A stretch of 64,000 nt of DNA, taken from assembly GCA_947589515.1 (NCBI GenBank), contig CANQBE010000001.1:3800-67799 (forward strand). The letters are read 5' to 3'. The stretch comes from an uncultured Bacilli bacterium (GTDB taxonomy: Bacteria > Bacillota_I > Bacilli_A > RF39 > UBA660). The notes below the pieces were generated by a model. That model did not search any database. It saw only the letters and a list, made by a program, of their open reading frames with translations, and had not been told where the DNA came from. The position numbers and the translations under genes are program-made. Each line of letters starts with the position of its first letter. Positions within the stretch are counted from its first letter, which is position 1. Positions 5,153 through 39,944 of the stretch are shown here, one piece after another.

Positions 5153-6979
5153 ATGAAAAAAATAAGTGTTATGAATCAAGAAACAAATCATTATCAAATA
5201 ATGACAGTAATCGAAAATATTGCTTATATCAAATTAGTAACTGGTAAGACTGGACTATTCAATGTAAAAACAAATAAGATCATTGGTAATGTAGATTACT
5301 ATGATATTATTGATGATGTAGATGCCAAATTTTATTATCAAATAAAAGAATTATTAGACGAAAATAAAAAAACGATAACAATTTATGATGCTTTAAATGA
5401 AAAAATCATAGTGGATGATTGGGAAGTGGTTAAACAATTTAATCGTGATTATCCTCTTATAGCCATCAAATCACCTAGAGATGGTAAAATTCATTTATTT
5501 GATCATTATGCATATAGACAATCAAATAATATCTTTGATATGCCTTTAGATGATGTAGAATTCTTTGGAAAAGATTGTAATGATACCTATTTCGTACTTA
5601 CGAAAGATGATAAGAAAGGCATTTATCATTATAATTCATATGATGAAATACATAGTTTGATTATACCTATAGAGTTTGATTGTATTGAAAACTTTTCTCA
5701 TATAGCTATTTTGACCAAAGATCATAAACAATATTTTGCCTGCGATGATCAACATACCAATTTAAGTTTAAGTGAACCGTTTGATCAGATTACCATTGAT
5801 GAGGAAAATCAAAAATTCTTATATTGTAAAAAAGGGAATGTCATCGATGTTTATAATACTAAAATATTTATTCGTCCAGTGCACCAATTACTATTATCAA
5901 TAGATGCAGATGAAATCAAAAAAATATATAGTGAAGAAAGTCAACCTGGTAACTTTGATTATCAAAAATATATATTTAAAATCGTAAAAAATAACAAAGT
6001 GGGAATTATTGGTTATGAAAAAACGTATTATGATACAGATGGAATCTTATTTATTTCGTTATCACCTACCTATGATGACACCGAGATGGAAAGTGGTGCT
6101 TTTTATTTAAAAAGAAAAGATAAGATTGGCCTTTTTGTTGGTAATCAGCAATGTCATCAATTGATAAAACCTAAATATCAGATGATTCAGCATATACTAT
6201 ATCAATATTTTGCGTTATGCCATGATGGACTTTGGGATATTGGGGAAATTTCTCCATTTCAATCATTTACACCCAGTATCTCTAACTGCGAACTGGTAGA
6301 ATTATGGGAAATGGGGTTACTATACAAAAAAAATAATCAATATGGTTTAGTATTATCTAAGACGTATGATGATGTTACTATAGTTCCAGCCGAGTACGAT
6401 AGAATTAAGAATGTGGAAGGATGTTATTTTATACTTGAACAAAATAATAAAAAAGGATTCAGACACTTAGGAAACGACCTTTTACCAGTTGAATATAATG
6501 AAATTAAGATGAGTGGATTAGGTTATAGACAAAGTTCAAGAAGGAGAGATATCCTTTATCTTGCTTTACGAAAGGGCAAAGAATATCAATTAGCAAAAAT
6601 GAAGAATTGGGAATATACAGAAACCAATATCGAATTGGTCAGCAATCAGACTTTTGATATGATTGATTTCTTTGATCAAATCATGATATTAAAAGATAAA
6701 AGATATACCTATATTTATGATTACCAAGAACAATTATTACAAAAATTACCAAGAAATGCTTCTATAACGATTTATGAAAATCTTGATCAATTTGATTGCG
6801 AAGATGATCTGTATTTGATTGATGGTGTTTACTATAACTATATAGATGGCAAACTTATAAAAAACATAACTATCAATGAAACGAACGACAATTTAATGGA
6901 AATAAGTTCCGATGATTCGAATGTGCAGGAAAGTTATCCTACTTTAGTTTTAGAAAAAAGTAAAAAGAGTAGAAAATAA
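5153..6979 (+). CDS. Large cytoplasmic hypothetical protein with WG/KWG-like beta-repeat signatures
   Basis: RBS ggagaa precedes the ATG at 5153. Recurrent segments of the type KKGIYHYN, KVGIIGYE, KIGLFVGN, QYGLVLSK and KKGFRHLG. No signal peptide. Confidence 0.55.
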   Translation: MKKISVMNQETNHYQIMTVIENIAYIKLVTGKTGLFNVKTNKIIGNVDYYDIIDDVDAKFYYQIKELLDENKKTITIYDALNEKIIVDDWEVVKQFNRDYPLIAIKSPRDGKIHLFDHYAYRQSNNIFDMPLDDVEFFGKDCNDTYFVLTKDDKKGIYHYNSYDEIHSLIIPIEFDCIENFSHIAILTKDHKQYFACDDQHTNLSLSEPFDQITIDEENQKFLYCKKGNVIDVYNTKIFIRPVHQLLLSIDADEIKKIYSEESQPGNFDYQKYIFKIVKNNKVGIIGYEKTYYDTDGILFISLSPTYDDTEMESGAFYLKRKDKIGLFVGNQQCHQLIKPKYQMIQHILYQYFALCHDGLWDIGEISPFQSFTPSISNCELVELWEMGLLYKKNNQYGLVLSKTYDDVTIVPAEYDRIKNVEGCYFILEQNNKKGFRHLGNDLLPVEYNEIKMSGLGYRQSSRRRDILYLALRKGKEYQLAKMKNWEYTETNIELVSNQTFDMIDFFDQIMILKDKRYTYIYDYQEQLLQKLPRNASITIYENLDQFDCEDDLYLIDGVYYNYIDGKLIKNITINETNDNLMEISSDDSNVQESYPTLVLEKSKKSRK

Positions 6980-7015: not shown

Positions 7016-8337
7016 GCCAAATTTCAAGTAGAAACCGGAATTTTTGATAAAAAAGTGTAAAGTAATGCTATAATTTGGTTGATTATATTTGAGTTAGCTT
7101 GGCTAACTCAAGATTGAATAATTCAAGGGAAGATTTATAATTAAGAATCTTCCTTATTTTTGTGTTTATAAGCTCATTAGCGTTCATTACATATTCATCA
7201 GTATAATCGTTAATGTTACATCCTTTTGGAAGAAATAATCTTAGTAGTTTATTACCATTTTCATTAGATCCTCTTTCATAAGAAGAATAAGGATGAGCAA
7301 AATAACACTTTGTTTTAAGATATTTTTCAATATCTTTCCATTTAGAAAATTCAACACCATTATCAAATGTAATAGATTTAAATATATCACTCAGTTTATA
7401 ATCTTTTAATTCAGGATATTTGTTTTTAATTTTTTTAACCGCCTTATAGATAGTTAATGATTTTCTATCATTACATTTAATAGTTATTTGAAATCTTGTT
7501 TTTCTTTCAACTAGAGTAAAGACTGCACCACTGTTTGGAATAGTTCTACTACCTACAATAGTGTCTCCTTCCCAATTACCAAATTCATCTCTATCATTAG
7601 GTTGAAAAGGTCTTTTTTCAATACTTGTACCTTTAGGTTCTGTCTTACCTTCTTTTCTTTCATTTTTGGATTTTCTGTTGCATTTCATTGGAAGTTCATG
7701 TTTATCAAATCCTTCAATTTTACCATCTTCTACATAATTGTAGAAAGTAGCAGTACATATTGTAGTCATATTTTCAATTTCATCAGTTCTATTGAGTTTA
7801 AAATCATTAATTATCTCATCTATTGAATTGATATTATAATCACTTCTAAATTCTTTAATAACTAATTGAATAAAGTCTTTTGCAGATTTTCTTTTAGAGG
7901 CATTACTTTCAACTGATTTTTTAGTTCTTTTATTCCATGCAGTATTAGCATTAAATTCTATTCTTTCTCTATATTCATAATCTCTGACAGTAATTAAACC
8001 ATCTTTAATTATTTCATATAAGTTTGATAAGGTTGTACCAATTGAACTAGCAAGTTGTTTCATAAATATAGTTTTCTTAGAATCTACTTCTTTAGCAGCA
8101 ATCCAATGATTATATTCGGATTCAATTTTTTCATACATTTCTTTGGTTAAGTGTTTATTTTTTTCTTTCTTTTTAGTACAATATACATTGTTCAAGTTAA
8201 TCACTTCTTTCTATAATTAATTTTTTAACCAATTATAATTATAGCTGATTACTTGAACTTTTTATATGTAAAATTCTAAGTAAACTTCATCTGTAAACCT
8301 CCTTTAAAAATAATTCCAGTTTTATTTTAGAATAGAG
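7016..8337 (-). mobile_element. IS30-family insertion sequence, approximate ends
   Basis: Single intact DDE transposase ORF. Imperfect subterminal inverted repeats: agaaaccggaattttt on the left against the reverse complement of aaaaataattccagtttta on the right. Bounded by the 15-bp direct repeat. Confidence 0.8.
7083..8204 (-). CDS. IS30-family DDE transposase
   Basis: 373 aa with an N-terminal HTH region. DDE triad context GNWEGDTIVG ... ITFDNGVEFS ... YERGSNENGNKLLR. GTG start. Confidence 0.9.
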   Translation of the reverse strand: MINLNNVYCTKKKEKNKHLTKEMYEKIESEYNHWIAAKEVDSKKTIFMKQLASSIGTTLSNLYEIIKDGLITVRDYEYRERIEFNANTAWNKRTKKSVESNASKRKSAKDFIQLVIKEFRSDYNINSIDEIINDFKLNRTDEIENMTTICTATFYNYVEDGKIEGFDKHELPMKCNRKSKNERKEGKTEPKGTSIEKRPFQPNDRDEFGNWEGDTIVGSRTIPNSGAVFTLVERKTRFQITIKCNDRKSLTIYKAVKKIKNKYPELKDYKLSDIFKSITFDNGVEFSKWKDIEKYLKTKCYFAHPYSSYERGSNENGNKLLRLFLPKGCNINDYTDEYVMNANELINTKIRKILNYKSSLELFNLELAKLTQI

Positions 8338-8352
8338 GTGATGGAAAAAGGA
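8338..8352. repeat. Right copy of the 15-bp direct repeat flanking the IS element
   Basis: gtgatggaaaaagga, identical to 7001-7015. Confidence 0.85.
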
Positions 8353-8410
8353 TTTCTTTTTCCTTTTCATTTTGAAAAGAACATGCTATAATAAATTCGT
8401 GGTGATAAAC

Positions 8411-8935
8411 ATGAAGAAAAAACAAAACAAATCTTATCAAATTCATACAACGAGTGATATGGAATACTCAAAGCTAATCAAGATTGCACTTGGTGTTCTC
8501 TTAGTATTAGGATTAACCTATTTTGTAACCGCTATTGCAACAGGAGAAATTAAATTTGGAAATAAGGATCAAGAAGAAAAAGCAGAAACTGTTATTCAAT
8601 ATGATGAAATATTAGCAGGAGAGATTTTTAATCGTAGTCAAGAAGAGTATTATGTTTTATTATTTAACTTTACAGATACTTTTGCTAGTTATTATTTATC
8701 ATTAAAAGATACTTATACAGAACAGGAAAATGCTTTACCTATCTATATTGTAGATTTGGAAAAACATCCTAATAAGGAATATGCAGTAGAAGAAGGGGAA
8801 GATTATGCAGAATATCCAGATACTATCGATGATTTAAAAGCAAGTAATCCAACTTTAATCAAAATTCGCAATCATAAAGTTACAGAAAGAATTAGCGGTA
8901 GAGATCGTATTTTAGAATTCTTTAATCAAGAATAA
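8411..8935 (+). CDS. Membrane-anchored hypothetical protein
   Basis: RBS ggtgat precedes the ATG at 8411. One N-terminal TM helix, then an acidic soluble domain. A hairpin follows at 8937-8972. Confidence 0.5.
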   Translation: MKKKQNKSYQIHTTSDMEYSKLIKIALGVLLVLGLTYFVTAIATGEIKFGNKDQEEKAETVIQYDEILAGEIFNRSQEEYYVLLFNFTDTFASYYLSLKDTYTEQENALPIYIVDLEKHPNKEYAVEEGEDYAEYPDTIDDLKASNPTLIKIRNHKVTERISGRDRILEFFNQE

Positions 8936-9017
8936 TATTTAGACTACTGCTTTTGATAACAGTAGTCTAAATATCTATAAAAAAGGCAAAAAAGAGTAAA
9001 AATTCTAAAAATTTTAT

Positions 9018-9046
9018 CGCAAAGTACTTGCCAAGAGAATAAAAAT
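9018..9046 (+). promoter_or_regulatory. Sigma-A-type promoter for tRNA-Ile
   Basis: ttgcca, 17-nt spacer, tagaat, about 30 nt upstream of the tRNA. Confidence 0.45.
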
Positions 9047-9077
9047 ATAGTAGAATGAAAATGTTCATTGATTAAAT

Positions 9078-9154
<77 letters not shown>

Positions 9155-9166
9155 TTTATGATATGC

Positions 9167-9199
9167 ACTTGTCTTACATGACAAGTTTTTTTTTTTTTT
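9167..9199 (+). terminator. Rho-independent terminator after tRNA-Ile
   Basis: Stem acttgtc/gacaagt followed by a T-run of about 14 nt. Confidence 0.85.
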
Positions 9200-9299
9200 G
9201 TCCTTTTATAATTGAAAGAAATTTCTAGCATAAGTAATCAAAAAATATTATAATAAAAAAAACGAATGAAATAGAACTTTGATCGAAAGGAGAATACAT

Positions 9300-11471
9300 A
9301 TGATTGTTAAAGTTTTGGTAGAACTATCAAATAAAAATATTGATAAGACTTTTGATTATTTAGTTCCAGAAAAATTGAAATCGCAAATTCAAATTGGTAT
9401 TCGTGTAACCGTACCATTTGCTCATCAGATTTTAGAAGGGTTTGTTTTAGAAATTTCCGATTATGTAGATAGCAGTTTTGAATTAAAAGAAATTATGAAT
9501 GTTGTCGATCAAGATATTGTATTAAATCAAGAATTGTTGGAACTAGGTAAATATATTTCAAGAACGACCTTATCTACTTTGATATCTGCTTATCAAACGA
9601 TGCTTCCCAAGGCACTAAAAGCAAAACAAGGAGTAAACGTATCTAAAAAAATGGCACATTACTTACTTTTGAAAAAGGAAGTTTCCGAAAAATTAACAGA
9701 TACTCAACGAGAAATTATCCATCAAATTCAAACAAAGGGTAGATTACTCAAAAAAGAAGCAGAGCTCATCTCTACTAGTAGTGTCAAAACTTTATTAAAA
9801 AAGGAAATCATCGAAGAAGTAGAAGAGGAAGTCTATCGTTTACATCACGAATCTGATTTCAAAGAAAAATATCCTTTAACGCCATCTCAACAAAAAGCTG
9901 TAGATACTATCTTAGATCAGAAAAATACCGATGCTGTTTTTTTAATCCATGGGGTAACAGGTAGTGGAAAAACAGAAGTTTATATGGAAATTATTGAAAA
10001 ACTCTTACAAGAAGGAAAGGAAAGTATTGTTTTAGTACCTGAAATTTCTTTAACAGAGCAAATTGTTTCTCGTTTTCAAAATCGTTTTACAGATAGTATC
10101 GCTATTTTACACAGTCGTTTAAGTGATGGTGAAAAATATGATGAATGGCGAAAAATCGCAAGAGGCGAAGTTAAAATCGTCATTGGTGCTAGAAGTGCTA
10201 TTTTCGCTCCCTTAAAAAATATTGGAGTTATTATTATTGATGAAGAACATACAGATAGTTATAAACAAGATAGTTGTAATCCTAAGTACCATGCATTAGA
10301 TATTGCCAAATGGCGGGGAAAGTATCATCATTGTCCAGTTGTACTAGGTAGTGCTACTCCAACTTTAGAAACTTATGCAAGAGCCAAAAAAAATGTCTAT
10401 CAATTAATTGAATTAAATCAAAGAGTCAATCATAGATCTTTACCAGAAATTCAAATTATTGATATGAATCAGGAAAGAAAAAAAATGGTTGGTAATTTTT
10501 CTTGCTCACTCATTAGTGCTATGCAGGATACTTTAGAGAAAAAGGAACAAGTCATTTTATTATTAAATCGTCGTGGCTATTCTTCCGTTGTATCTTGTAA
10601 AAATTGTGGATATACAGAAAAATGTCCTAACTGCGATATTAGTTTGACTTACCATAAAAGCAGTAATACCCTTCGTTGTCATTATTGTGGATATGGAACC
10701 AAATTAAATGAATGTTGTCCAGAATGTAGAGAAAAATCTCTATCTACACTTGGTACTGGTACCGAAAAAATAGAAGAGGAACTTCATAAACTTTTTCCCA
10801 ATCAAAAAGTCATTCGTATGGATTTCGATACTACTAGTAGAAAAGGAAGTCATGATCGCATTATAAAAAGTTTTGCAGCAGGCGAATATGACATTTTACT
10901 TGGTACACAAATGATTGCGAAAGGACTCGATTTTCCCAATGTAACTCTAGTAGGTGTCATCAATGCTGATACTAGTTTAAATATTCCCGATTTTCGTAGT
11001 AGTGAGGTTACTTTTCAATTACTATGTCAAGTAGCAGGTAGAAGTGGTCGCAGAGATAAAAAGGGAAAAGTACTCATTCAAACGTTTAATCCAGAGCATT
11101 ATGCCATTCAATATGCCAAAACGCATGATTATTTAGGTTTCTTTACAAAAGAAATGTCAATTAGACATCAATTAGGTTATTCACCTTACTATTATTTGAC
11201 AGTTGTAAGAATATTGAGTAAATCGTATGATGATGCTAAAAGCACTAGTAATAAGATTGGGGAATACTTTCATAAAAATTTACCCAATACTACTATTTTA
11301 GGTCCTAGTGTTGCCAATGTCTTTCGAATTAATAACATTTATCGCTTTCAGATTGTCCTAAAATATAAAACGGAAAAGGAAATTTATCCTATTTTAAATC
11401 AATTAATCGATCATTACAAAACGAATTCAAAAGTAAAAATCGATATTGATATTAACCCAACTCATATATAA
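9300..11471 (+). CDS. priA: Primosomal protein N' (replication restart helicase PriA)
   Basis: Walker A GVTGSGKTE, DEEH box IIDEEH, and the Cys-rich zinc region CKNCGY..CPNCD..CHYCGY. RBS aaggag. Confidence 0.95.
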   Translation: MIVKVLVELSNKNIDKTFDYLVPEKLKSQIQIGIRVTVPFAHQILEGFVLEISDYVDSSFELKEIMNVVDQDIVLNQELLELGKYISRTTLSTLISAYQTMLPKALKAKQGVNVSKKMAHYLLLKKEVSEKLTDTQREIIHQIQTKGRLLKKEAELISTSSVKTLLKKEIIEEVEEEVYRLHHESDFKEKYPLTPSQQKAVDTILDQKNTDAVFLIHGVTGSGKTEVYMEIIEKLLQEGKESIVLVPEISLTEQIVSRFQNRFTDSIAILHSRLSDGEKYDEWRKIARGEVKIVIGARSAIFAPLKNIGVIIIDEEHTDSYKQDSCNPKYHALDIAKWRGKYHHCPVVLGSATPTLETYARAKKNVYQLIELNQRVNHRSLPEIQIIDMNQERKKMVGNFSCSLISAMQDTLEKKEQVILLLNRRGYSSVVSCKNCGYTEKCPNCDISLTYHKSSNTLRCHYCGYGTKLNECCPECREKSLSTLGTGTEKIEEELHKLFPNQKVIRMDFDTTSRKGSHDRIIKSFAAGEYDILLGTQMIAKGLDFPNVTLVGVINADTSLNIPDFRSSEVTFQLLCQVAGRSGRRDKKGKVLIQTFNPEHYAIQYAKTHDYLGFFTKEMSIRHQLGYSPYYYLTVVRILSKSYDDAKSTSNKIGEYFHKNLPNTTILGPSVANVFRINNIYRFQIVLKYKTEKEIYPILNQLIDHYKTNSKVKIDIDINPTHI

Positions 11472-35918: not shown

Positions 35919-35972
35919 AAACCCCTAGGAATTTTGACAAGTATATCAAAATATCCATTGGGGTTTTTTATT
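35919..35972 (+). terminator. Long imperfect hairpin terminator ending the housekeeping block
   Basis: Outer stem aaacccc/ggggttt, inner stem attttga/tcaaaat, then a T6 run. Confidence 0.6.
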
Positions 35973-36141
35973 GAAATAAAAAATCATCTCTAGATAGAGA
36001 TGAAATATATTTTAATGTTCAAAAAGTTCGAACAGATTCGTCAATGGAGCGATTACTTGTTAGGTTATGAACACCTAATAAACATAAAATTCATAATTAC
36101 TTGATTAATCAATTATAACTAATTTTTAACTTATATACAAT

Positions 36142-36212
36142 ATTTTTCAAAATTTTTATGACATTTCTTACGACATTTCTTGTGACATTTCTTACGACAT
36201 GATATAATTATA
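36142..36212 (+). promoter_or_regulatory. Island promoter copy 1: extended -10 (tgatataat) preceded by three tandem 12-bp repeats gacatttctt(ac/gt)
   Basis: The repeats lie at 36160-36171, 36172-36183 and 36184-36195. The tataat box is at 36203-36208 with TG at 36200-36201. Near-identical to 38970-39016 apart from a 24-bp expansion. Confidence 0.6.
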
Positions 36213-36234
36213 TCTAGAAAATTAGGAGGTAAAA

Positions 36235-37557
36235 ATGGTAGGCGCTGTTGAAGATGTAAGAAATGAATTTAAAATAAAATTAACTGATAAATTTGAAGAA
36301 GAAGTTATAGCATTTTTAAATACTAATGGTGGAAATATTTTCTTAGGTATTGATGATAAAGGAATTATTATTGGTGTTAAAGGAAATATTGATCTACTTC
36401 AAAGAACGATTAAAGATAGAATAAAGAATAATATTATGCCGTCTACTTTAGGGCTTTTTGATGTTGCAGTTTTAGAAAAAGATAATAAAAAATATATAAA
36501 AGTTATTGTTGCTCGTGGAAATGAAAGACCATATTACTTAAAGGGTATGGGAATGACTCCTGATAGTTGCTTTATAAGAGTGGGAAGCTCAATTCAAAGC
36601 ATGCCAAGTGATATGATTAATAATGAATTTAGTAAAAGAACAAGGAATTCTTTAAAAAATATTATATCCCCTAAACAAGATTTATCTTTTAGCCAGTTAA
36701 AGATTTATTATGAAGAAAAAGGATTTTTAATTAATGATAATTTTCTAAATCAATTAGAACTTTATACAGATGATGGAAAATTTAATTATGTGGCTTATCT
36801 ACTTGCTGATAACAATTCTATTTCTATATTATTTGGAAAGTATGAAGGCACTAATTCGGTTAATTTAGTAGAGAATGAAGATTTTGGTAATTGTTCTTTA
36901 ATTAAAGCTACAAAAAATATTTTGAATAAAATAAAACTTGAAAATAAAATTTTTACAAAGATTGAATATCCAGAGAGAAAAGAAATAAAAATGTATGATT
37001 ATGATGCTGTAAGAGAAGCAGTTGTTAATGCTATAGTACACAATGATTGGTCTAATGAATATTCACCTAAATTTGAAATGTTTAGCGATAAACTTGTTAT
37101 ATCATCAAATGGTGGAATTCAAGAAAACACATCTAAAGAAGAATTTTTGCAAGGTTTTTCTTTACCAAAAAATAAAGAATTAATGAAAGTTTTTAGAGAT
37201 TTAGATTTAGTTGAACAAATGGGTACAGGAATTATACGAATATTAGAAAGTTATGATAAAAGTTCTTTTGAATTTTTTCCAAACTTTATTAGAGTAACAT
37301 TTCCATTTAATGAAAATAAATTTAATATAGAAAAACGAGTTTCAGTTAAAACTTTAGAAAATTTAACGAAAATACAAAATTCTATTATTTCCTTAATGTC
37401 AGACTCACCAACTATTACTCAAGATAAACTTGCACGATTATTAGATGTAAACATTAGAACAATTCAAAGAAATATTAAGAATTTAATTGAATTAGGTATT
37501 GTCGAAAGAATTGGGGCAACTAAAAAAGGCGAATGGAAAGTAATAGATAGGCGGTAG
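36235..37557 (+). CDS. Schlafen/AlbA_2 (divergent AAA_4) + HATPase_c_4 + C-terminal wHTH protein (COG2865-like putative regulator/sensor)
   Basis: RBS aggagg. N-terminus reads NEFKIKL..EEVIAFLNTNGGNIFLGIDDKG.IIGV. Middle region has REAVVNAIVHNDW and LVEQMGTGIIRI. C-terminus has ITQDKLARLLDVNIRTIQRNIKNLIELGIVERIG. Confidence 0.8.
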   Translation: MVGAVEDVRNEFKIKLTDKFEEEVIAFLNTNGGNIFLGIDDKGIIIGVKGNIDLLQRTIKDRIKNNIMPSTLGLFDVAVLEKDNKKYIKVIVARGNERPYYLKGMGMTPDSCFIRVGSSIQSMPSDMINNEFSKRTRNSLKNIISPKQDLSFSQLKIYYEEKGFLINDNFLNQLELYTDDGKFNYVAYLLADNNSISILFGKYEGTNSVNLVENEDFGNCSLIKATKNILNKIKLENKIFTKIEYPERKEIKMYDYDAVREAVVNAIVHNDWSNEYSPKFEMFSDKLVISSNGGIQENTSKEEFLQGFSLPKNKELMKVFRDLDLVEQMGTGIIRILESYDKSSFEFFPNFIRVTFPFNENKFNIEKRVSVKTLENLTKIQNSIISLMSDSPTITQDKLARLLDVNIRTIQRNIKNLIELGIVERIGATKKGEWKVIDRR

Positions 37558-37562
37558 GTAAT

Positions 37563-38939
37563 ATGCGTGAAGAAATACTTAAAAAAGTAGATATTTTATA
37601 TACTATGTGGAAACAAGGTAGTCTGGGTGGAGAAATAATGCCAGAAGATGCAAATCCACATTTGGAAAAATCATCATTAGAAAATTATCTATATTTTACT
37701 TTGCCAATGGCACTTAATTATCAAAGAAATTCTTATACTTTATGGGAAAGTGCAAATAAAACATATTATGATGAAGAAACAAGATTTGTTTTTAATCCAA
37801 ATGAAGTTTTAAATAGATCGTTTGAAGAAGTACAATATGCTTTAACAAAATATAAAGTTGCTCTACAAAAGACTAAACAAACGGAAATATGGATAAAATT
37901 GTGCAATACATTTGTAGAATTATTTGATGGAGATATTAGAAATTTATTTGATAAATTAGATAATGATGTTGATAAAATAAGAGATTTTATTCAAAAAGAA
38001 AATAAAACAAAATTTCCATATTTATCGGGTACTAAAATTTGTAATTATTGGCTATATGTTATTTGGCAATATACTGATAGAAAATATAAAAATATTGAAA
38101 ATCTAACTGTAGCTCCTGATACGCATGTCTGTAAAGCTACTTATAGACTAGGATTAATTACAGAAGATGAACTAAACTCAAATAATGTTCAGTTGATTGT
38201 AATAGACAGGTGGAATCAATTATTTAAGGGTACAAAATATAAACCAATTGATATACATACGGCGTTATGGTTATGGAGTAGAAATGGCTTTAAAGAATTA
38301 GATCAAAGTATTTTAGATAATAAAAAAATTAAAAATATAATTAAGAATTCTTATGAAAAAAATAACTATATTGAAAAATTTAGAAAAAGAAATTTATTAC
38401 CTTTTGAAAAAAGCATTTTTGATCAAGTTATAAATTTAATACCAAAACAAGGTAATATTTTAGATTTAGGTTGTGGTAACGGATATCCTTATGATTATTA
38501 TTTTTGTTCAAAAGGATTTAATTTAATAGGCATTGATTTTTGTGAAAAACATATTAAAGAGGCTCGAAAAATAAATCCTAAAGCAAAATATTTTATTAGT
38601 GATATTGAAAATTATGAGATTGATAGTAAATATGATTTAGTATTAATGCTATTTTCTTTACTACATTTACCTAGAGAAAAACATAAGTATATATTAGAAA
38701 GAATTTATAATAGTTTAAATGAAAATGGAATTTTATTGATAACACTTAGAGATGAAGATGCAGGTACTATAAAATATAAAAATGATTTTTGTAATCAAGA
38801 AATGATTTGGAGTTACTATGATTATGAAACTTATATAAAATTGTTAAAAGAAATAGGATTTAAATTAATTTTCAGTGAGAATCAAAATAAATATGGAATA
38901 GAAGAAAGCCATAACTGGGTTATATTACAAAAGAAATAA
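37563..38939 (+). CDS. Fusion protein: endonuclease-III-like (HhH-GPD-like) N-terminal domain + class I SAM-dependent methyltransferase C-terminal domain
   Basis: Residues 151-200, FPYLSGTKICNYWL...VAPDTHVCKATYRLGLI, parallel E. coli Nth LPGVGRKTANVVL...IAVDTHIFRVCNRTQFA, including the Lys and Asp. Residues about 296-400 have motif I ILDLGCGNG and a DLVLMLFSLLHL post-I/II pattern. Confidence 0.6.
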   Translation: MREEILKKVDILYTMWKQGSLGGEIMPEDANPHLEKSSLENYLYFTLPMALNYQRNSYTLWESANKTYYDEETRFVFNPNEVLNRSFEEVQYALTKYKVALQKTKQTEIWIKLCNTFVELFDGDIRNLFDKLDNDVDKIRDFIQKENKTKFPYLSGTKICNYWLYVIWQYTDRKYKNIENLTVAPDTHVCKATYRLGLITEDELNSNNVQLIVIDRWNQLFKGTKYKPIDIHTALWLWSRNGFKELDQSILDNKKIKNIIKNSYEKNNYIEKFRKRNLLPFEKSIFDQVINLIPKQGNILDLGCGNGYPYDYYFCSKGFNLIGIDFCEKHIKEARKINPKAKYFISDIENYEIDSKYDLVLMLFSLLHLPREKHKYILERIYNSLNENGILLITLRDEDAGTIKYKNDFCNQEMIWSYYDYETYIKLLKEIGFKLIFSENQNKYGIEESHNWVILQKK

Positions 38940-38969
38940 AATTTGTATTCTTTTAAATTATTAAGAAAA

Positions 38970-39016
38970 TATTTTTCAAATTTTTTATGACATTTCTTAC
39001 GATATGATATAATTAC
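38970..39016 (+). promoter_or_regulatory. Island promoter copy 2: a single gacatttcttac unit plus extended -10
   Basis: About 45 of 48 aligned nt are identical to copy 1. The tataat box is at 39008-39013 with TG at 39005-39006. Confidence 0.6.
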
Positions 39017-39056
39017 ATATTGAAAGTTTAGAATGAATTTATGAAAGGAACAACAT

Positions 39057-39803
39057 ATGAATGGCAAAGATAACGAATACGAGTTTGTAAAAAATTTAAA
39101 TAATAAAAAAATTCAAAACTTAAATCCATTATTAAATTCTTTATTAAAATATTTATTTCCAAATGAATCTGAAGATGCAATCATTAAATGTTGGTTAAAC
39201 CATTATCCGCAAAAAACAGATATTTTAATTAAGGTTAATTCTCATATTAAGGGAATAAGCCTTAAAATTGGTAATAAAAATAGTGTTCATGTAGAACCGG
39301 TTACAGAATTTGTTCATTTTTTAACGGAAAATAATGTATCTAACGAAAGCATAATTGAATATTTAAAATATCATTATGCTGATGGAACTACTAATGGAAG
39401 TGGAATACAAAGGATAGGTGTTTTGGATTACAAAAAATGTCATCAACAGGAAATAGATAAAATAAATCAAGAATTAAATAATGTGGAATTATTAAAAAAA
39501 GCTATAAATCGTTTTGTAATACAAGGCAATAATTCTGATTTCAAAATAGATGCTATCGTTTATGGAAGTGTAAATGATTTTTTATGGTTAAGTAAAGAGG
39601 AAATTTTAGAAGTTTTATTAAGAAAACGAAATCATTATTCAACAGGAATTCATTTTAGTAATTTATTTGTTCAACCTCAAAATAGATGTTTAAACTATAA
39701 TAAAAAATATGAAAATACTCGTAATAATGTGCAAATAAAATGGTATGGATTATTTGATGATATTATGGAAAATTTATATTATAAAAATAATAGAAAGGTT
39801 TAA
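39057..39803 (+). CDS. Hypothetical protein; candidate PD-(D/E)xK restriction-endonuclease-like nuclease
   Basis: 248 aa. E7/E9 ... KTD55ILIKV ... GIS68-L-K70 fits a D-x(12)-SxK core, reminiscent of MspI-type KTD...NIK. No other recognisable domain. Confidence 0.45.
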   Translation: MNGKDNEYEFVKNLNNKKIQNLNPLLNSLLKYLFPNESEDAIIKCWLNHYPQKTDILIKVNSHIKGISLKIGNKNSVHVEPVTEFVHFLTENNVSNESIIEYLKYHYADGTTNGSGIQRIGVLDYKKCHQQEIDKINQELNNVELLKKAINRFVIQGNNSDFKIDAIVYGSVNDFLWLSKEEILEVLLRKRNHYSTGIHFSNLFVQPQNRCLNYNKKYENTRNNVQIKWYGLFDDIMENLYYKNNRKV

Positions 39804-39823
39804 CTTCCAAGTTGACCACGTGG
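39804..39823 (+). repeat. Inverted partial copy of tRNA-Gly (anticodon loop to T-stem)
   Basis: cttccaagttgaccacgtgg matches the reverse complement of 39895-39914 at 19 of 20 positions. It begins 1 nt after the stop codon of the nuclease-like gene. Confidence 0.85.
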
Positions 39824-39870
39824 ATTCCATAAAAAAATCAGCCTTTATAAGACTGATATTATTTCAAATT

Positions 39871-39944
39871 TGGAGCGGATGATGGGAATCGGACCCACGT
39901 GGTCAGCTTGGAAGGCTGAAGTTCTACCATTAAACTACATCCGC
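39871..39944 (-). tRNA. tRNA-Gly (anticodon UCC), CCA encoded, non-canonical T-loop
   Basis: Cloverleaf folded by hand. Acceptor stem gcggatg/catccgc, anticodon loop ctTCCaa, T-arm gtggg-tccgatt-cccat, which puts C rather than U at position 55. Confidence 0.85.

Follow-up and report, generated by a model that had tools for sequence, protein, structure and literature searches.

A small islet at tRNA-Gly in an uncultured Bacilli bacterium, probably a patchwork of a Schlafen, an AGOG-like fusion and a HinP1I-fold nuclease

The islet at tRNA-Gly(tcc)

The 64-kb stretch of contig CANQBE010000001.1 from an uncultured Bacilli bacterium (the window, meaning the whole of the DNA analysed here) carries between 36045 and 39877 a compact unit of three genes, termed P1, P2 and P3, which abut the 3′ end of a tRNA-Gly(tcc) gene on the opposite strand (Table 1). 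P1 encodes a prokaryotic Schlafen (pSlfn) with a C-terminal winged helix-turn-helix (wHTH), P2 a fusion of an AGOG-like domain to a class I S-adenosylmethionine (SAM) methyltransferase (MTase), and P3 a protein with the fold of the restriction endonuclease HinP1I. An earlier note, made from the letters of the window, had placed the three same-strand open reading frames (ORFs) and the tRNA gene exactly where we find them, and had proposed that the genes form one undescribed defence or DNA-modification system.

Table 1. Features of the islet and its borders, in window coordinates
Feature	Position	Strand	Description
Upstream terminator	35919–35972	+	Hairpin 35919–35966 then U6; closes the upstream housekeeping block; outside the islet
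Left direct repeat TGGAGCG	36045–36051	+	att-like copy of the tRNA-Gly 3′ end; left islet border
P1 promoter cassette	36046–36234	+	Three tandem 12-nt repeats (GACATTTCTTAC/GT, 36160–36197), −35, extended −10, ribosome-binding site (RBS) AGGAGG
P1	36235–37557	+	440 aa; pSlfn HisKinase-HTH class: SLFN/AlbA_2, GHKL-like HATPase_c_4, C-terminal wHTH
P2	37563–38939	+	458 aa; AGOG-like HhH-GPD domain aa 1–250 (K158, D186) and class I SAM MTase aa ~290–458
Partial P1 promoter/operator copy driving P3	38968–39014	+	~1.5 repeat units; TATAAT 39008–39013
P3	39057–39803	+	248 aa; HinP1I-fold PD-(D/E)XK endonuclease, catalytic E7, D55, S68, K70
Inverted partial tRNA-Gly copy (anticodon loop to T-arm)	39804–39830	+	27 nt, 85% complementary to 39888–39914; directly after the P3 stop
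Hairpin in the P3–tRNA gap	39837–39857		Terminator for minus-strand tRNA-Gly, probably bidirectional
Right direct repeat TGGAGCG	39871–39877	+ (strand reading)	tRNA-Gly 3′ end, attachment site
tRNA-Gly(tcc)	39871–39944	−	

Upstream, the housekeeping block ends in a strong terminator, as the earlier note had it (predicted RNA fold of −17.3 kcal/mol, z = −3.0), and a further hairpin follows at 35984–36003. The island had been taken to begin directly behind this terminator, at 35973, but comparison by BLAST with the sister metagenome-assembled genome (MAG) L096 (GCA_947626055.1; related loci carry L numbers throughout) places its edge elsewhere. Homology at ~95% identity runs from 36045 to 39876, the flanking DNA differs on both sides, and both TGGAGCG repeats coincide with the breakpoints. 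In the whole window, this heptamer occurs at three sites, two of them, on the plus strand, being those at 36045 and 39871 and the third unrelated. We therefore set the left edge at 36045. The left junction recurs in L096, L025 and L016, and 3′ of P3 the homology ends a few nucleotides into tRNA-Gly in L096, L017 and L059. The repeat borders and the breakpoints at the tRNA thus mark a small islet inserted at an attachment site in tRNA-Gly.

The AT-rich shift that had been read from spot counts is confirmed by a sliding-window analysis: the GC content is 0.240 for the islet versus a window mean of 0.288, at the 0.17th percentile of same-size windows, making this the lowest-GC 3.9 kb of the window. 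GC at third codon positions is 0.10–0.13 in the islet genes versus ~0.18 in the flanking genes just upstream. The earlier note had also seen no integrase, and neither the ORF list nor Pfam reveals an integrase or recombinase among the three ORFs of the unit; no recombinase was found in the tRNA-Gly loci examined, fetched flanks included. An Rfam scan of the region returned no RNA except tRNA-Gly. The inverted partial tRNA-Gly copy is kept 3′ of P3 in L096, L017, L016, L059 and L021, with P3 identity as low as 65%; were transcription to read through from P3, the copy in the RNA would base-pair to the antisense sequence of the tRNA. Separately, ...AAATGGAGCG is candidate attP content for a tyrosine or serine recombinase of this tRNA-Gly site.

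The end of tRNA-Gly(tcc) is a recombination hotspot with varying content among related gut Bacilli. The site holds a Ser_hydrolase gene and P3 in L016, P3 alone behind a P1-type promoter, without P1 and P2, in L017, P3 and another cassette in L025, and a decayed copy of the trio in L096. The decay in L096 consists of a 1.14-kb deletion (window 38614–39753 missing; L096 10362–10382) that takes the C-terminus of the methyltransferase, the P3 promoter and most of P3. Because L096 has lost P3 and the end of the methyltransferase, and L017 is without P1 and P2, the combination of the three genes is dispensable. P3 adjoins tRNA-Gly also in L021 and L020, as it does in L016 and L025, with different co-resident genes. 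Downstream of its promoter, L017 shows a weak resemblance to the start-codon region of P1 (~15/22 nt); given this weakness, we make no claim that a deletion of P1 and P2 gave rise to L017.

Two further observations concern cassettes at this site. At 6120–7762 of L025, at the 3′ end of tRNA-Gly, a 1.6-kb cassette is bounded on both sides by a perfect 31-nt direct repeat (ATTAAGACTGATTTAATCTTTAAATGGAGCG) that ends in TGGAGCG; within it, a P1-type promoter and RBS drive an unrelated gene of 427 aa that carries an RNNIAH (HEPN-like) motif and for which PADLOC gives no match. Behind TGGAGCG, L016 (5461), L059 (10499), L017 (3943), L019 (10835) and L026 (10856) share a second cassette start, A(T/G)TGT(G/C)G(A/T)AG(A/T)TAT(C/T)TA(C/T)AACT, whose conservation suggests a family of cassettes accreting at the tRNA-Gly attachment site.

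The three genes and their relatives

The domain make-up of P1 agrees with what had been recognized by eye, a Schlafen/AlbA_2 domain followed by an ATPase domain and a wHTH. Pfam finds SLFN_AlbA_2 (PF04326, E = 1.3e-18) at residues 9–123, HATPase_c_4 (E = 5e-12) at 279–345 and HTH_11/HTH_24 at 378–430; the best relative in the PDB, 3lmm, is uncharacterised. The N-terminus reads EDVRNEFK, giving E6-x4-E11-x-K13, an intact Ex4ExK Schlafen RNase motif; 44 of 48 complete homologs, spanning 33–96% identity, retain it. Prokaryotic Schlafens were shown in 2025–26 to protect against phage by cleaving tRNA and carry a variety of fused sensor domains, among which HisKinase-HTH is the second commonest architecture (19.2%); a screen of the family gave two working systems, the DUF262 and Ig-like fusions (Perez Taboada et al., Nat Microbiol 2026, PMC13056530). 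By homology, P1 would be a phage-activated tRNA nuclease. The earlier note had cast it as a sensor or regulator; since the catalytic motif of the Schlafen RNase is present, P1 is more likely an effector than a mere sensor. Our literature search on the AlbA_2/HATPase_c_4 combination yielded nothing useful.

Among 80 metagenomic loci with relatives of P1, neither P2 nor P3 is found alongside. The genes directly 3′ of the homologs are mixed, comprising HD_4/AAA_28, PGI, a GT2 glycosyltransferase, an NTP-transferase, NeuB, Mrr-nSTAND3 (PDC-S73), YhcG (PDC-S02) and several unknowns, and in several loci the next gene is convergent. With such heterogeneous neighbours and no conserved partner, P1 stands alone as a module. 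In L097–L100, P1 homologs of 84% identity (at ~8001–9311), which recur on dozens of human-gut contigs, belong to a mobilisable element that carries a relaxase, TnpV and a serine recombinase and is inserted near rpsR-ssb-rpsF; Abi_2 is encoded a few kilobases away.

P2 begins 5 nt past the P1 stop codon. All of its Pfam, NCBIfam and PDB matches fall in the C-terminal half only and are to small-molecule class I enzymes (Methyltransf_25/23/11, TehB, MM_2633 and phosphoethanolamine methyltransferases). A Foldseek search with the full AlphaFold2 (AF2) model (predicted local distance difference test (pLDDT) score 88.6) gives cg3271, MM_2633, NodS and TehB as top matches, with no DNA methyltransferase in the top 50, and P2 contains neither of the DNA-methyltransferase motifs DPPY and PCQ. 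We considered P2 as a DNA methyltransferase partner of P3 and rejected this on these motifs, the fold neighbours and the missing co-occurrence. A PADLOC match of P2 to mad2, which would make it part of a MADS system, was likewise rejected because it covers the generic SAM-binding fold only. Residues 1–290 of the model are all-alpha, as expected of an HhH-GPD domain; the full-model search returned methyltransferases only, which swamp the N-terminal domain.

The assignment of the N-terminal domain comes instead from its family, 539 relatives of which were collected by exhaustive search. In their alignment, D186 and H188 are invariant in a (V/P)D-H(V/I) motif, K158 is nearly invariant in FPYLSG-K158, a helix-hairpin-helix (HhH) with lysine, and distant relatives carry a cysteine cluster like that of EndoIII. 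Searched against the PDB, the family profile matches Pa-AGOG, a member of the archaeal 8-oxoguanine glycosylase/lyase family (AGOG, PF09171), at E = 7e-6 (1xqo, where D186 aligns with PVD), and EndoIII with E = 0.025; 16 of 33 members of the P2 family match the Pfam model AGOG. The description of P2 as an endonuclease-III-like domain joined to a class I SAM methyltransferase was thus correct in a broad sense. We read the domain as a base-excision glycosylase/lyase, with a role on modified nucleotides possible.

The same domain is abundant as a standalone protein of ~254 aa at ~80% identity, and relatives (P0069, P0072, P0095, P0098 and P0108; compare window 37563–38327) are fused to an LCM-type methyltransferase, an HD hydrolase, an N-terminal GNAT domain or the queuosine-salvage domain PF10343. 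The methyltransferase of P2 is one of several swapped-in C-terminal domains. An AGOG-like family that freely exchanges its C-terminal enzyme domains, queuosine salvage among them, hints at chemistry on modified bases or nucleotides. Full-length P2 orthologs (75–88% identity) occur in three unrelated contexts without P1 or P3. The P2-type orthologs sit mostly in housekeeping contexts and twice adjoin a uracil-DNA glycosylase (UDG)-like gene; in the nearest species-level relative, the domain is standalone and surrounded by cell-wall genes, next to a UDG-like gene. Such a gene (235–243 aa) lies directly 3′ of the AGOG-like gene in two unrelated contexts (L009 11695–12426 and L101 11187–11894), and L096 has one (1393–2100) ~6 kb upstream of P1. 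In L101, the next gene after it encodes the HD_4/AAA_28 protein that is also the partner of P1 on the mobile element of L097–L100. For the fusion of AGOG to a methyltransferase, nothing useful was found in the literature.

The D-x12-SxK nuclease-like core that had been noticed in P3 is real: E7, D55 and S68-x-K70 are invariant, and P3 shares them, along with N75-S-V-H78, with 28–33%-identical homologs that adjoin pairs of C5 DNA methyltransferases on a plasmid of Staphylococcus kloosii and a phage of Terrisporobacter. P3 has no Pfam match, and neither single-sequence nor profile search against the PDB gave one. Structure search alone succeeded: with the AF2 model (pLDDT 92.9), the only significant PDB neighbours in Foldseek are two HinP1I entries (E = 2e-9 for 2fkc_A and 2e-6; TM-score 0.60; 248 versus 247 residues). 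PADLOC assigns the full length of P3 to its Type II restriction endonuclease model (REase_II, E = 6.4e-14). The earlier note had recognized no restriction–modification (R-M) or other defence signature; P3 carries one, and P1 belongs to the pSlfn family. Because the catalytic residues are common to P3 and its R-M-linked homologs, we take P3 to descend from genuine restriction enzymes with its active site kept.

The family now follows a different course. At least 130 species representatives have P3, all from one lineage of uncultured gut Bacilli/'Tenericutes' MAGs, and identity declines smoothly from 90% to 45%; exact matches to the window P3 are confined to two short contigs, and for the window P1 and P2 exact-sequence look-ups gave no contig. 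Recurrent neighbours of P3 are NifU/IscU, SufB/D, SSB and MurE, and among 80 P3 loci C5 methyltransferases lie within 10 kb in only three (tblastn with four C5 methyltransferases). No C5 methyltransferase is found in the window by tblastn, and the motifs DPPY/NPPY and PCQ occur in no window ORF of at least 150 aa. Retention of a restriction-enzyme fold with an intact active site, but without a methyltransferase, by reduced-genome gut Bacilli of at least 130 species implies a new role, which may be modification-dependent restriction, repair nicking or tight repression. Palindrome avoidance does not indicate a target for P3, as GCGC (observed/expected ratio (O/E) 0.75–0.92) and CCGG (0.96) are not depleted. 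Two other palindromes are: GATC has an O/E of 0.53 in the window and 0.47 in 1.1 Mb of related loci (L016–L095), and ACGT is depleted in the window only (0.48). These depletions suggest exposure to restriction at those sites, unrelated to P3.

Tandem repeats upstream of P1 and P3

The tandem repeats of the P1 promoter overlap its −35 and extended −10 elements, with TATAAT at 36203–36208. Copies of TGACATTTCTTACGA lie at 36159, 36183 and 38988, the only three in the 64 kb, and none of 100 shuffles reaches three matches. P1 and P3 each follow a near-identical block of ~45 nt, −10 element included, which bears out the duplicated promoters of the earlier note. The 5′ hairpin of the P1 cassette has a non-significant fold (z = −1.2).

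The promoter cassette is present upstream of P1 homologs at 96–64% identity, and two to four tandem repeats of ~12 nt occupy the −35/−10 region upstream of homologs from 96% down to ~52% identity. With divergence of the protein, the repeat sequence shifts from GACATTTCTTAC to GTGACATTTATG, GGCGACATTTTG and GGTGCATTTCTA. Because the repeats co-vary with P1, they are candidate operators of its own wHTH. The loci that bear them are L097–L100 and L105–L124, ~100 nt upstream of the gene.

On the P3 side, the partial copy of this operator makes it probable that P3 is co-regulated with P1 in this genome. The copy is absent before the P3 ortholog of L016, where homology starts at window 39018. In a bolder extension, HisKinase-HTH Schlafens would be both tRNases and DNA-bound master switches: with the wHTH sitting on the 12-nt repeats, operator-bearing cassettes such as P3 and the L025 gene would be plugged in, and one phage sensor would release several unrelated effectors at the tRNA-Gly array. 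We regard this as rather improbable; were it true, the effectors here would be a methyltransferase-less restriction-type endonuclease and a glycosylase–methyltransferase.

One system or a patchwork

What decides how the trio is to be read is its distribution. In the 80 P3 loci, P1 never occurs and P2 once, as a Q_salvage fusion 4.4 kb away. The complete trio is limited to this species (L001 and L002, which have the same sequence), with the decayed copy in L096. The trio is therefore not supported as one conserved system. The earlier note had itself named absence of co-occurrence outside this genome as refuting a single system, and this absence is what we find, together with P2 orthologs that lack P1 and P3 and P1 homologs with mixed neighbours. 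Nor are the parts undescribed: P1 falls in the published HisKinase-HTH class of pSlfn proteins (PMC13056530) and P3 has the fold of a HinP1I-type restriction endonuclease. Of the proposed defence-island layout, the tRNA-hotspot island survives, with its deviant GC, att-like repeats, variable occupancy and defence-type genes; the single system does not.

We therefore favour, with a probability of about 0.7, the reading that 36045–39877 is an integrase-less islet at the 3′ end of tRNA-Gly(tcc) with three functionally separable genes, adjacent here by chance: a genuine islet at a tRNA gene, plausibly a defence hotspot, filled by a species-specific patchwork of independently distributed genes rather than by a new three-gene system. 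In such a patchwork, P1 would be a self-contained HisKinase-HTH Schlafen, a phage-activated tRNA nuclease whose wHTH binds the tandem 12-nt repeats of its own promoter and autoregulates. P2 would be an AGOG-like glycosylase and apurinic/apyrimidinic (AP) lyase that acquired a SAM methyltransferase and is a passenger read from the P1 promoter. P3 would be a lineage-conserved HinP1I-fold endonuclease, its ancestor linked to C5 methyltransferases and itself now without one, co-regulated with P1 in this genome via the copied operator.

Several observations weigh against this reading. The trio is shared with the sister MAG L096 at 95% DNA identity, so its genes have been kept together for some time, and the gap between P1 and P2 is 5 nt in both. 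The operator copy on the P3 promoter makes some functional coupling in this species possible. As to defence, HisKinase fusions gave none in the one published screen, the HisKinase-HTH class lying outside that screen (PMC13056530). The N-terminal domain of the window P2 has no Pfam match of its own, its assignment resting on the family profile. The 7-nt repeats are short, and the weight here lies on their coincidence with the breakpoints and on the longer repeat in L025. Finally, P3 stands beside tRNA-Gly in a minority of the 80 P3 loci, so its residency there is limited to closer relatives.

Some of these same observations favour a lineage-specific, co-regulated multi-effector defence unit, in which P1 would repress both the P1–P2 operon and P3 through the shared operator until phage sensing by the ATPase domain frees a tRNase, a DNA glycosylase or modifier and an endonuclease together. 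Besides the operator copy before P3 and the 5-nt spacing of P1 and P2 in the window and L096, this proposal draws on L025, where a promoter of the same type drives another cassette gene, the one with the RNNIAH motif, and on P1 homologs that neighbour the nuclease-type defence candidates PDC-S73 and PDC-S02. Against it, the three genes do not co-occur beyond this species, the deletion in L096 and the lack of P1 and P2 in L017 show their combination to be dispensable, orthologs of P2 and P3 sit mostly in housekeeping contexts, and the P3 ortholog of L016 has a different promoter. We consider this unit unlikely.

Those housekeeping contexts could also point away from defence altogether. As a repair module, the islet would comprise an HTH transcription factor (P1), a base-excision repair glycosylase or modified-nucleotide N-glycosidase (P2) and a repair nickase (P3). 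AGOG-like genes do adjoin UDG-like genes and sit among cell-wall and nucleotide genes, P3 adjoins Suf/Isc and SSB genes, the Q_salvage, HD and GNAT fusions are suggestive of chemistry on nucleotides, and 30% of pSlfn genes have no defence neighbours (PMC13056530). However, P1 keeps its RNase motif across 33–96% identity, its homologs occur on a mobilisable element that has a relaxase and a recombinase and adjoin defence candidates, and the islet is foreign in composition and one that relatives can do without, all of which make a purely housekeeping role quite unlikely.

A non-canonical R-M pair, in which a base-flipping, glycosylase-like domain of P2 would deliver a new DNA methylation that shields the host from P3, is very improbable: P2 does lie directly upstream of P3, which keeps a restriction active site with no conventional methyltransferase, and an HhH-GPD domain is plausible as a base-flipping module, but P2 accompanies P3 in a single one of the 80 loci, there as the distant Q_salvage fusion, at least 130 species keep P3 without an adjacent P2, the methyltransferase domain is small-molecule-like and free of DPPY and PCQ, GCGC and CCGG are not avoided, and the L096 deletion, having taken the methyltransferase C-terminus and most of P3 together, offers no test of P3 toxicity without P2.

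With the patchwork as the preferred reading, the case teaches that an attractive trio of sensor, modifier and nuclease can be a chance juxtaposition. What remains of most interest is the operator of the HisKinase-HTH Schlafens, conserved and co-varying with the protein, together with its presence on neighbouring cassettes.

Integrase-less genomic islets associated with tRNA genes are accretion arrays or cis-mobilisable elements. The present islet resembles them in its insertion at a tRNA 3′ end, a direct repeat at the far border, deviant composition and cassettes that differ from relative to relative. Unlike them, it is very small (3.8 kb), its repeat measures 7 nt (31 nt in L025), and none of the loci examined has a recombinase.

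P3 compares with Type II restriction endonucleases of the HinP1I/MspI type in its full-length fold (248 versus 247 aa, TM-score 0.60), its acidic/lysine catalytic core and its homologs on a plasmid and a phage beside paired C5 methyltransferases. It differs in being without a methyltransferase in the window and in 77 of the 80 related loci, in its presence in at least 130 species with housekeeping neighbours, in its D-x12-S-x-K core, and in that GCGC and CCGG are not depleted.

P2 is closest to AGOG, with which it has in common an all-alpha architecture, an HhH with K158 and, 28 residues on, D186 in a PxDxH(V/I) motif; the family profile matches Pa-AGOG 1xqo, and distant relatives have the EndoIII-like cysteine cluster. 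Unlike AGOG, P2 is bacterial, the window protein has no Pfam match, the iron–sulfur loop is absent in the P2 clade, and P2 is fused to a small-molecule SAM methyltransferase, with relatives fused to HD, GNAT, Q_salvage or LCM domains.

P1 matches the HisKinase-HTH pSlfn class in its SLFN/AlbA_2 domain with Ex4ExK, its fusion to a GHKL ATPase and an HTH, and its occurrence as a single-gene module in variable regions and mobile elements (PMC13056530). Two features not described there set it apart, the co-varying tandem-repeat promoter and the copy of this promoter before the neighbouring nuclease gene. For the largest untested class of pSlfn proteins, the co-varying repeats provide a testable handle on regulation and possibly on activation.

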